Of a stretch of DNA of 64,000 bases, positions 41,201 through 44,200 are shown piece by piece. Position numbers: made by a program. Source of the stretch: Escherichia coli (GTDB taxonomy: Bacteria > Pseudomonadota > Gammaproteobacteria > Enterobacterales > Enterobacteriaceae); the NCBI RefSeq assembly GCF_044324785.1, contig NZ_CP172127.1, one strand, 5' to 3'. The first letter of the stretch is position 1, and each line of letters begins with the position of its first letter.

Positions 41201-44200
41201 TTTCTCATTATTAGCATCTAAATAGGCGGTATTAAGATTAACCACGACACCATTTTCCGGATCCGTTTTTAGGCCATTCCAGGTCATGCTCATACCATAG
41301 CCGGTACGATCGGACTGATCGACAAAATTACCCTTGCTATCGGTATAACCATAAGCATTATTTACCACGTTCGCTTCCATCGCTGCGGAAACGGTAAATT
41401 CTTCCGTCGGCGACCAGGCAATTACCGGACGCAGATAAGCAACATTTTTCTGCTGCTCCATATCGCGTCCATGATAATTACCGTCATTATATAAAGATGT
41501 TCCGTCTTCAAGTAACGTGTTTAATTCAAAATACCAGTTATCGAGTTGTTTGCTGACGAGGAAATTACCGCCAGCGTTAGAGCGCCCGCGGCCCTCTTTC
41601 ATCATATAGATATAACCGCTGCCATCGTCATAAAGATCGTTCGCAGTATTACCGGAATGTTCAACAAAGGTATCCTGATTCAGCGGGAACATATCGTAGG
41701 CTTCAAAACGGCCTACTTTGACCTTCCAGTCGTTTTCTTTGCCAAAGAAGAATACCGCATCATCGATATTTACTGAACCGTGCATGTCCCCCAGCGGTTG
41801 TGCGGAGAACCCGGCGAAATAACCATTATCCAGTTTTCGCATACCATCAAAACCTAACAGAATACGACCATTGAGATTCCACTGTTCATTAGTGGGATCG
41901 CTATTCACATCAGCGTTGGTCATTGCCAGCAGGCCATGATTACTTTCTGCATCCATATTAAATTCTACGTCGCCGTAGATTTTTAAATCGCCATAACCTG
42001 AGAGCAAAAGATTAGGTGAGGTGGAATTTTTCTTTGCAGATTCCGCCGTTGCCTGTCCATTTACCGGCGTATTGCCCTGGGCAGCCTTAATTTCGCGGAT
42101 CTCAGCGGCTTGTTGTGTCTGCAGCTGTTTAACCTGGCTCTCTGCTTTTGCTGCCCGCATTTCTGCCGCTTCCAGGCGTTCTTCCAGCAATGCCATGCGT
42201 TGTTCCAGCGTTAAATGCTGTGTTTTTGCCATTCCGGTACTACATGCCAATAATAAACCGATGGCTAAAGATAATGTCGATTTTTTCATTATTTACGTTC
42301 CCTGAAATAAAGGAGACCCTACGCTTTCCAAAAGGAATACATATATAGGGAAATATAAGGTGTGCACTTTCGAATTTTTAATCCAACTTCAGCAGACCGA
42401 TGGATAGTATCCCGCCATATAATATGAGTAAATCCGCTGATTTCCTGGAACGTGAGGAATATAACAATAGTGCCGTTTTTAACTAAATATCGTAAAAAAT
42501 ATTAGATATGATTCACGCTGACTCATAAGCCACAAATATAAATAACCTTGCTGCAAAACATGTGCGGCAGTTAAACATTCACAACATCATTAAATAATGA
42601 TTTTTTATTCACTGCATTTATTTTGTCCATCAATATGTGCCTTACACCGCAAAATTTATCCTTCACTCTGCCTTATATTGTCACGACTTCACGACATATC
42701 CGCGCTCATCACAAAACCGCCCCGCCGTTACAATTAACTATAATATTTTTTCATGGAGTCCAATAATGGCAGCACTTACTGCAAGCTGTATTGACCTGAA
42801 TATTCAGGGCAATGGCACTTATTCCGTTCTGAAGCAGTTGGCGACAATGGCGTTACAAAACGGTTTTATCACCGACTCACACCAGTTCCTGCAAACTCTG
42901 CTGCTGCGCGAAAAAATGCACTCCACCGGTTTTGGTTCCGGCATCGCCGTGCCGCACGGTAAAAGCGCCTGCGTTAAACAACCGTTCGTGTTATTCGCCC
43001 GCAAAGCGCAGGCCATTGACTGGCAGGCCAGCGATGGCGAAATTGCTGGAGCGAACAGGAACGACGTTTTCGTGGATTTTTTATTACCCTCGCCCAACCG
43101 GTTGAGGTGAATAACGAAGTCGTTAACCATGTGCTGATCGCCTGTGCCGCCGCCGATGCGCGTCATGAGCTAAAAATATTTAGCTATCTGGCAAGCGTAT
43201 TGTGTCAGCATCCGGCAGAGGTTATTGCCGGGTTAACAGAATATGAGGCATTTATGGAGTTACTTCACAGGGGGTGAACGGTGTCGGATGCGCCGCATCC
43301 GACACTGCATTTATCACCACAATCAAAAACGTTTAACGCAAGCTATTATAGTCATCGACCATTTCGTTGTACTCGCGTAACGCTCGCGGAAATGAGTCGT
43401 CGACCATCCAGCTTGTGTTTGCATCCTGAAGATGCTCTTTATCCCAGTCAGAGTACGGAACTTTATCTCTGACGCGGCGAACATATTTTTTAGCCTCGAG
43501 TTGATACTGGTCTGCCGAATTAATGAACGAGAAATTCATACCGCCTTTATCCGCTTCTTTGGCCTGCGCCACCAGCGTTTCCAGTTCAGAGACTTTCTTC
43601 ATTGCCGCATCAACATCAAACTTCTCTTGCGAAATCAGGTTATTAATTTGTTTCGCTGAAATCATGACTGCCAGAGAGTAGTAGTGGAATGTTTTCCCTT
43701 CTCTTTGTTCAATATTTTTCAGTTCCGCAAGCTGGCGCTTATCGTTAATTTCCTGAATCGCCGCATGATAAGATTCTGCTACAGGTTCAAAGGCTTCAAG
43801 ATTTTTTAAGAATGTCTGGTGCAGCGTTTTCCCTTTCGCAAACGCATCGTCTTTATAATTTTCCTGGGTGTAATATTTATCCATTTCGTTAATGGTATTA
43901 CCCAACGCCACGGCAGCATCAATATAACTCACCGCCACGCCATCAATAGGTTGCAGCGCAGGCGTTAACGCCACGACTCTTTTTATTCCTTTTTGACACT
44001 CAGAGAGATTGGATTCACTAATGCCATAGATGCCATAAACAAGGCTCTCTTTACCCGTTGGCCCCTGTTTAAAATCTTTCAGCCAGTCAGCGTAACGCGC
44101 CAGACTGTTCTGTACAGGGATCTGTAACTTGTTGTAGCACTTGATATAGACATCCATTTTTTCGTCGAAGACCGCTTGTTCATCGACCACCGGTTGCGCA

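Follow-up and report, generated by a model that had tools for sequence, protein, structure and literature searches.

The interval between rhaM and yiiG in the 64,000-nucleotide stretch of Escherichia coli DNA analyzed here (contig NZ_CP172127.1; hereafter, the window) contains the first 92 codons of frvA joined directly to the last 236 nt of frvR. This arrangement is very probably the scar of a single 4.2-kb chromosomal deletion in the frvABXR operon, possibly with one small secondary deletion after it. According to the RefSeq annotation of E. coli K-12 MG1655, the genes of this region are ordered fdhD, yiiG, frvR, frvX, frvB, frvA, rhaM, and rhaD. The original prediction was therefore right in placing frvA-frvB-frvX-frvR between rhaM and yiiG in K-12. 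Its core claim, that the operon is deleted relative to K-12, is upheld, as MG1655 does not have the architecture of the window.

Organization of the Locus and Extent of the Deletion

In the window, rhaA, rhaD, and rhaM are located upstream of the porin/frv interval. The segment of interest (42290-43332) is bounded by the start of the porin gene and by the yiiG stop codon (43333). The locus comprises the following features:

40895..42289, minus strand: gene for a RafY-like carbohydrate porin (glycoporin) of 464 aa, left neighbor of the scar; Pfam Porin_8 (PF16966), E 3e-154
42290..42765, no strand: intact intergenic region between the divergent porin gene and frvA, presumed frv promoter side; collinear with ECamp083 at 98.8%
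42766..43041, plus strand: frvA 5' fragment, retaining 92 of 148 codons (1-92) and with them the active-site motif VPHGK; from profile matches and the ECamp083 alignment
42766..43110, plus strand: 114-aa ORF as gene callers see it, FrvA 1-92 followed by 22 out-of-frame residues, IAGANRNDVFVDFLLPSPNRLR
43041..43042, no strand: deletion junction, GGCGAA followed by ATTGCTGGA, with no inserted sequence and 0 shared bases
43042..43277, plus strand: frvR 3' fragment, last 236 nt, FrvR residues 506-582 and the stop codon, out of frame with the frvA piece
43281..43309, no strand: strong hairpin, rich in GC, located where the ends of frvR and yiiG converge, and similar to a REP element or a bidirectional terminator; from folding
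43333..44388, minus strand: yiiG, encoding a DUF3829 lipoprotein, intact, right neighbor of the scar; Pfam DUF3829, E 5e-101

As the frv-intact reference for BLAST we used strain ECamp083 (locus L003), which carries the same porin gene. Window positions 40801-43041 correspond to L003 6512-8752 with 98.84% identity, and positions 43042-43977 to L003 12958-13893 with 98.83% identity. The two ECamp083 blocks abut exactly between window positions 43041 and 43042, and the segment skipped between them, L003 8753-12957, amounts to 4,205 bp. It corresponds to frvA nt 277-447, the whole of frvB, the whole of frvX, and frvR nt 1-1513, and to K-12 coordinates 4088343-4092547 as derived from the MG1655 annotation. 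The predicted absence of frvB and frvX is thus confirmed. The join links frvA nt 276 (codon 92, window 43041) to frvR nt 1514 (window 43042). The 276 nt of the frvA piece make 92 whole codons, and the 236 nt of the frvR piece make 78 codons and 2 bases; because of these two extra bases, the two fragments are out of frame. Alignment with the intact frv region of ECamp083 bears out the loss of the operon and shows that the remnant had been parsed wrongly.

Both fragments are cut in the middle of a domain, and full-length FrvA proteins of 148 aa are named in Citrobacter, Salmonella, Kluyvera, Enterobacter, and Trabulsiella. Hence, the full frvABXR operon, which is intact in K-12 and in many other strains, is the ancestral state, and the organization of the window results from a loss and not from a gain in K-12.

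Identity of the Two Fragments

As predicted, the interval contains a single EIIA-like ORF (42766-43110). It matches Pfam PTS_EIIA_2 (PF00359) over profile positions 3-91 of 144 (E 1.3e-21) and the NCBIfam FrvA equivalog NF007389 over positions 1-93 of 148, with a score of 171.9 bits for a curated cut-off of 151 bits. By this score the ORF is orthologous to FrvA, and of the ~144 positions of a complete EIIA domain it holds, in one frame, positions 3-91. The alignment with ECamp083 frvA stops exactly at nt 276, the DNA being 98.8% identical up to there.

After the EIIA-like ORF comes a second one, in a different frame, which gives a weak PTS_EIIA_2 match (profile positions 75-123, E 0.0057). This succession had been interpreted as a frameshifted frvA, with the conserved C-terminus of FrvA itself in a different frame and with frvB, frvX, and frvR all gone, a reading to which we now give practically no credence. 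The peptide encoded by the second frame is identical to residues 506-582 of ECamp083 FrvR at 74 of 77 positions (96%), and BLASTP finds no alignment, not even local similarity, between this FrvR-derived tail and FrvA. At the DNA level, the alignment passes directly from nt 276 of frvA to nt 1514 of frvR. The DNA join and the protein alignments together refute the frameshift. Intact FrvR carries an HTH_11 domain at residues 5-60 and a PTS_EIIA_2 domain at residues 454-562, and it is this C-terminal EIIA-like domain of FrvR that led the tail to be read as an EIIA C-terminus. The proposal of a disrupted frvA stands as far as the retained 5' end is concerned, but the gene is fused to the 3' end of frvR rather than frameshifted. 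Likewise, frvR had been reported absent, and its last 236 nt persist at 43042-43277. Of the FrvR architecture (HTH, regulatory region, and C-terminal EIIA-like domain), the window retains residues 506-582, without start codon context.

Neighboring Genes and Noncoding Sequences

The porin gene between rhaM and frvA was overlooked in the original prediction. It is annotated as "carbohydrate porin" in ECamp083, SMS-3-5, and 06-00048 and is absent from the K-12 annotation. Its sequence varies unusually little (0-2 mismatches per 200 bp) across backgrounds whose frv remnants differ by 5-16%. On the other side of the scar, yiiG is annotated in K-12 and other strains. The 55-bp spacer that precedes it contains the hairpin listed above; the fold of 43270-43335 has an energy of -29 kcal/mol (z = -5.1).

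We considered whether 42100-43500 hides an RNA gene or a regulatory element, and rejected this. Over this region, Rfam returned no family at threshold, the sub-threshold matches being attributable to chance (E > 0.6), and the hits of a promoter and terminator consensus scan were at background, no more frequent than in shuffled sequence.

Two further variable segments were observed in the vicinity. Between yiiG and fdhD, a two-gene insert (44583-48726, minus strand) encodes a 768-aa TPR protein and a 611-aa HSP90-family ATPase. It is absent from K-12. Against NF010683, the ATPase scores 284 bits, short of the required 455, and a PADLOC scan of the pair identified no defense system, with one weak match to the TmtA ATPase domain. 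The rhaA-rhaD intergenic region (39465-39705) is unalignable between the window and most comparison loci, BLAST alignments breaking at 39509 and 39682; it aligns only with the YZMc10-2 locus (L005) and with L006 and L007, which belong to the same lineage as the window. The REP-like spurious ORFs at 39465-39705 suggest a variable REP/BIME cluster.

Distribution of the Junction

We searched 5,426 complete E. coli genomes with a 200-bp probe spanning the join. The probe was fully covered in one of them, strain 06-00048. The same junction was found on more than 120 contigs of draft assemblies, which fall into three diverged allele families, and is identical in the loci L006-L016. Occurrences in NCBI, ENA, and Logan were reached by exact-protein look-up of the 114-aa ORF, whose exact sequence is present on 103 contigs of these assemblies, one of them 5.68 Mb long. 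Locus L006 is 100% identical to the window across 11 kb. A second junction-bearing family accounts for about 20 further contigs (P0136, P0137, P0140, and P0001; L010-L016). An assembly artifact is ruled out by the recurrence of the identical junction in a complete genome and on these many contigs. An exact 24-mer of the junction had no match in the GTDB species representatives or in the JGI metagenome contigs.

The scar is already represented in RefSeq: in 06-00048, PGAP/RefSeq describes two adjoining partial pseudogenes, one of a "PTS fructose transporter subunit IIA" and one of the frv "transcriptional regulator." Our literature search on frv operon deletions returned passing mentions and no paper describing this junction. 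For instance, frvA and frvB are among the accessory genes that differ between ST131 lineages (PMC9837563).

Loss of frv across E. coli

The frvB-frvX segment is present in 4,187 of the 5,426 complete genomes, and another, larger frv deletion junction was found in 1,165. The frv operon is thus an accessory element of E. coli, missing from about 23% of the complete genomes. The closest complete genome to the window in the adjacent core region, N3 (99.7% identity), carries this common frv-less allele. In the rha-frv region, the identity of the window to any complete E. coli genome is at most 98.0%. In strain YZMc10-2 (L005 6288-6985), the one genome of this type examined, IS1B replaces the whole frv operon between rhaM and yiiG, which represents a third, independent route to frv loss.

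The neighbors of frv vary as well. About 2,544 of the complete genomes have the porin gene and 246 the TPR and HSP90-family insert; in some strains, the 5' end of yiiG has been lost along with this insert. Truncation of the yiiG 5' end beside fdhD was also observed in the common frv-less strains, in ECamp083, and in O158:H23. The frv operon has been lost through at least three or four separate events. With frv, the porin gene, and the two-gene island all varying among the 5,426 genomes, the earlier description of this junction as a hotspot for gene loss and gain is a fair one.

Mechanism of the Deletion

No IS and no foreign DNA were found at the join, where frvA and frvR are directly connected without extra bases. 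An IS-mediated adjacent deletion was rejected, as neither an IS nor an IS end is present at the junction, in contrast to YZMc10-2. Homologous recombination by equal crossover between the EIIA domains of FrvA and FrvR was also rejected: in the Pfam profile, the cut falls near position 91 for FrvA and near position 64 for FrvR, and the FrvR tail has no protein-level alignment to FrvA. With nothing inserted at the join and nonequivalent domain positions, both routes are excluded. The 3' third of frvA, frvB, frvX, and the first 1,513 nt of frvR would then have been removed by illegitimate, RecA-independent recombination.

The parental sequences share 0 bp at the join, and a simple one-step microhomology-mediated deletion therefore does not yield the junction. 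Two collinear patches of microhomology are nevertheless found in frvA and frvR around this point, GGCGAAG (7 bp) and ATTGCTGGA (9 bp). The parental frvA sequence reads GGCGAAG-ACGTCA-ATTGCTGGA and that of frvR reads GGCGAAG-(36 bp)-ATTGCTGGA. The 9-bp patch lies 7 bp into the deleted side in frvA and at the breakpoint in frvR, and the 7-bp patch is the join used by a related in-frame fusion. We favor a two-step history of illegitimate recombination and make no choice between two possible routes.

Along one of these routes, which we regard as a possibility somewhat below even chances, a deletion through GGCGAAG would have generated an in-frame FrvA(1-92)::FrvR(493-582) chimera of 182 aa, and a subsequent 37-bp deletion in the lineage of the window would have introduced the frameshift. 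Other assemblies labeled E. coli do carry such a 182-aa fusion ORF (P0028), which has 15 members from NCBI, ENA, and Logan on contigs of up to 144 kb. It occupies the same locus beside the same yiiG-side island, and its DNA junction shows the 7-bp microhomology GGCGAAG. Moreover, its frvA-derived part ends at the same position as that of the window, and the junction of the window equals that of the fusion minus exactly 37 bp. However, in the flanks, the fusion is about 15% diverged from all E. coli frv alleles compared, that of the window among them, so that it is at most a possible direct ancestor and may be an independent deletion; no intact frvA allele matching it was present among the fetched homologs. 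In addition, the 37-bp step is not flanked by a repeat, and it is equally simple to suppose that the deletion went through the 9-bp ATTGCTGGA repeat and that the 7-bp GACGTCA was lost afterwards. The intermediate along this second route would be GGCGAAGACGTCAATTGCTGGAGCGAAC, and the in-frame fusion junction is GGCGAAGG[CT]GAAAACCTG. A broader proposal, in which the junction is a decayed in-frame FrvA-FrvR chimera and GGCGAAG ... ATTGCTGGA a recurrent deletion hotspot that collapses the operon into a chimeric EIIA, seems improbable to us. If it were true, a past or present role of the chimeric EIIA in PTS signaling would be possible.

Single or Multiple Origin

The flanks of the junction differ in allele type among its carriers. 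Those of the window show 2-5 differences per flank with the intact alleles of ECamp083, O158:H23, and SMS-3-5. The remnant of 06-00048 differs from that of the window at 14 sites on one flank and 30 on the other. Many of these differences are at third codon positions or are K-12-like states, and they reach within about 48 bp of the join to its left and 20 bp to its right. This resemblance of the window to intact alleles, with a 06-00048 remnant that differs up to near the join, and the presence of two collinear frvA/frvR microhomology patches at exactly this place, might indicate a mechanistic hotspot at which the identical junction arose independently more than once. We consider such recurrence unlikely: the join is blunt, without microhomology, and not deterministic, and its exact repetition is improbable. 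Recombination also approaches the join closely. In the L011-L016 family, whose junction-bearing members are closely related, a two-base polymorphism, AAA/CAG (K87/Q87), is located 16-18 bp from it, which shows that recombination gets that near.

The likely history is therefore one old event, after which the flanks recombined, the blunt, nondeterministic junction pointing to one origin. Since the flanks differ in allele type, a single origin requires later recombination ending near the junction. Such recombination is plausible: intact donors cease to be homologous at the join, and exchanges terminating there are to be expected. The deletion would subsequently have spread and persisted in several E. 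coli lineages, and homologous recombination with other alleles would later have overwritten the flanks to near the junction.

Coding Capacity and Consequences

Judging from their truncation, both fragments are probably nonfunctional pseudogene pieces, and the strain has presumably lost the cryptic fructose-like PTS, the M42 peptidase, and the regulator. The 114-aa ORF still has its native upstream region and the VPHGK motif of the active site, and its exact conservation on the 103 contigs might be taken as a sign of a functional remnant, that is, a truncated or frameshift-restored EIIA with a phosphorylatable histidine acting in PTS signaling. This appears very improbable. The ORF lacks about 55 C-terminal residues of the 144-position domain, the same frvA fragment is interrupted by an internal stop in 06-00048, and the cognate IIBC partner, FrvB, is gone; exact conservation is expected in a clonal lineage.

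For annotation, the fragments should be labeled as frvA and frvR pseudogene remnants rather than as one frameshifted frvA gene, and the strain is to be counted among those without the Frv PTS. The locus is an ordinary deletion scar in an accessory, poorly characterized PTS operon. Its mildly unusual aspects are limited to the collinear microhomology patches and to the existence elsewhere of an in-frame FrvA-FrvR fusion at the same place. It can serve as a convenient marker of lineages and as a modest example of how an operon decays, and opens no new biological question.

Comparison with Other frv Loci

The K-12 frvABXR operon (b3897-b3900) encodes FrvA, a putative fructose-like PTS EIIA, FrvB, an EIIBC, FrvX, an M42 peptidase, and FrvR, a regulator with an EIIA-like C-terminal domain. 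The remnant of the window occupies the same chromosomal position between rhaM and yiiG and keeps frvA codons 1-92 and FrvR residues 506-582. Unlike K-12, the window is devoid of 4,205 bp of the operon, holds the leftover pieces in different frames, and has a porin gene between rhaM and frvA.

The common frv-less allele, as found in O2:H6 strain PG20180057 and in N3 (L004 ~7421; L024 9224-9577), has also lost frv and kept the porin gene on the left. Its breakpoints lie 18 bp upstream of the frvA start codon and 19 bp inside the yiiG 3' end. In contrast to the window, no frvA or frvR fragment is left and the 3' end of yiiG is cut.

The locus of 06-00048 (NZ_CP015229.1; GJ11_RS26100 and GJ11_RS26095) shares with the window an identical junction and the order porin, frvA', 'frvR, yiiG, with about 92-95% identity across the locus. 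It differs by the extra internal stop in the frvA fragment, by a 46-bp REP-like insertion in the frvR-yiiG spacer (L002 ~8000-8046, versus window 43288, where the window has a single hairpin), and by the absence of the TPR/HSP90-like island beyond yiiG.

Finally, the 182-aa fusion (P0028; L019-L023; L019 7001-7549) has the same frvR tail, locus, and yiiG-side island as the window. Unlike the window, it retains 37 more bp of frvR and is consequently in frame, displays a 7-bp microhomology at the join, has no porin gene on the left, and is surrounded by flanks diverged by about 15%.
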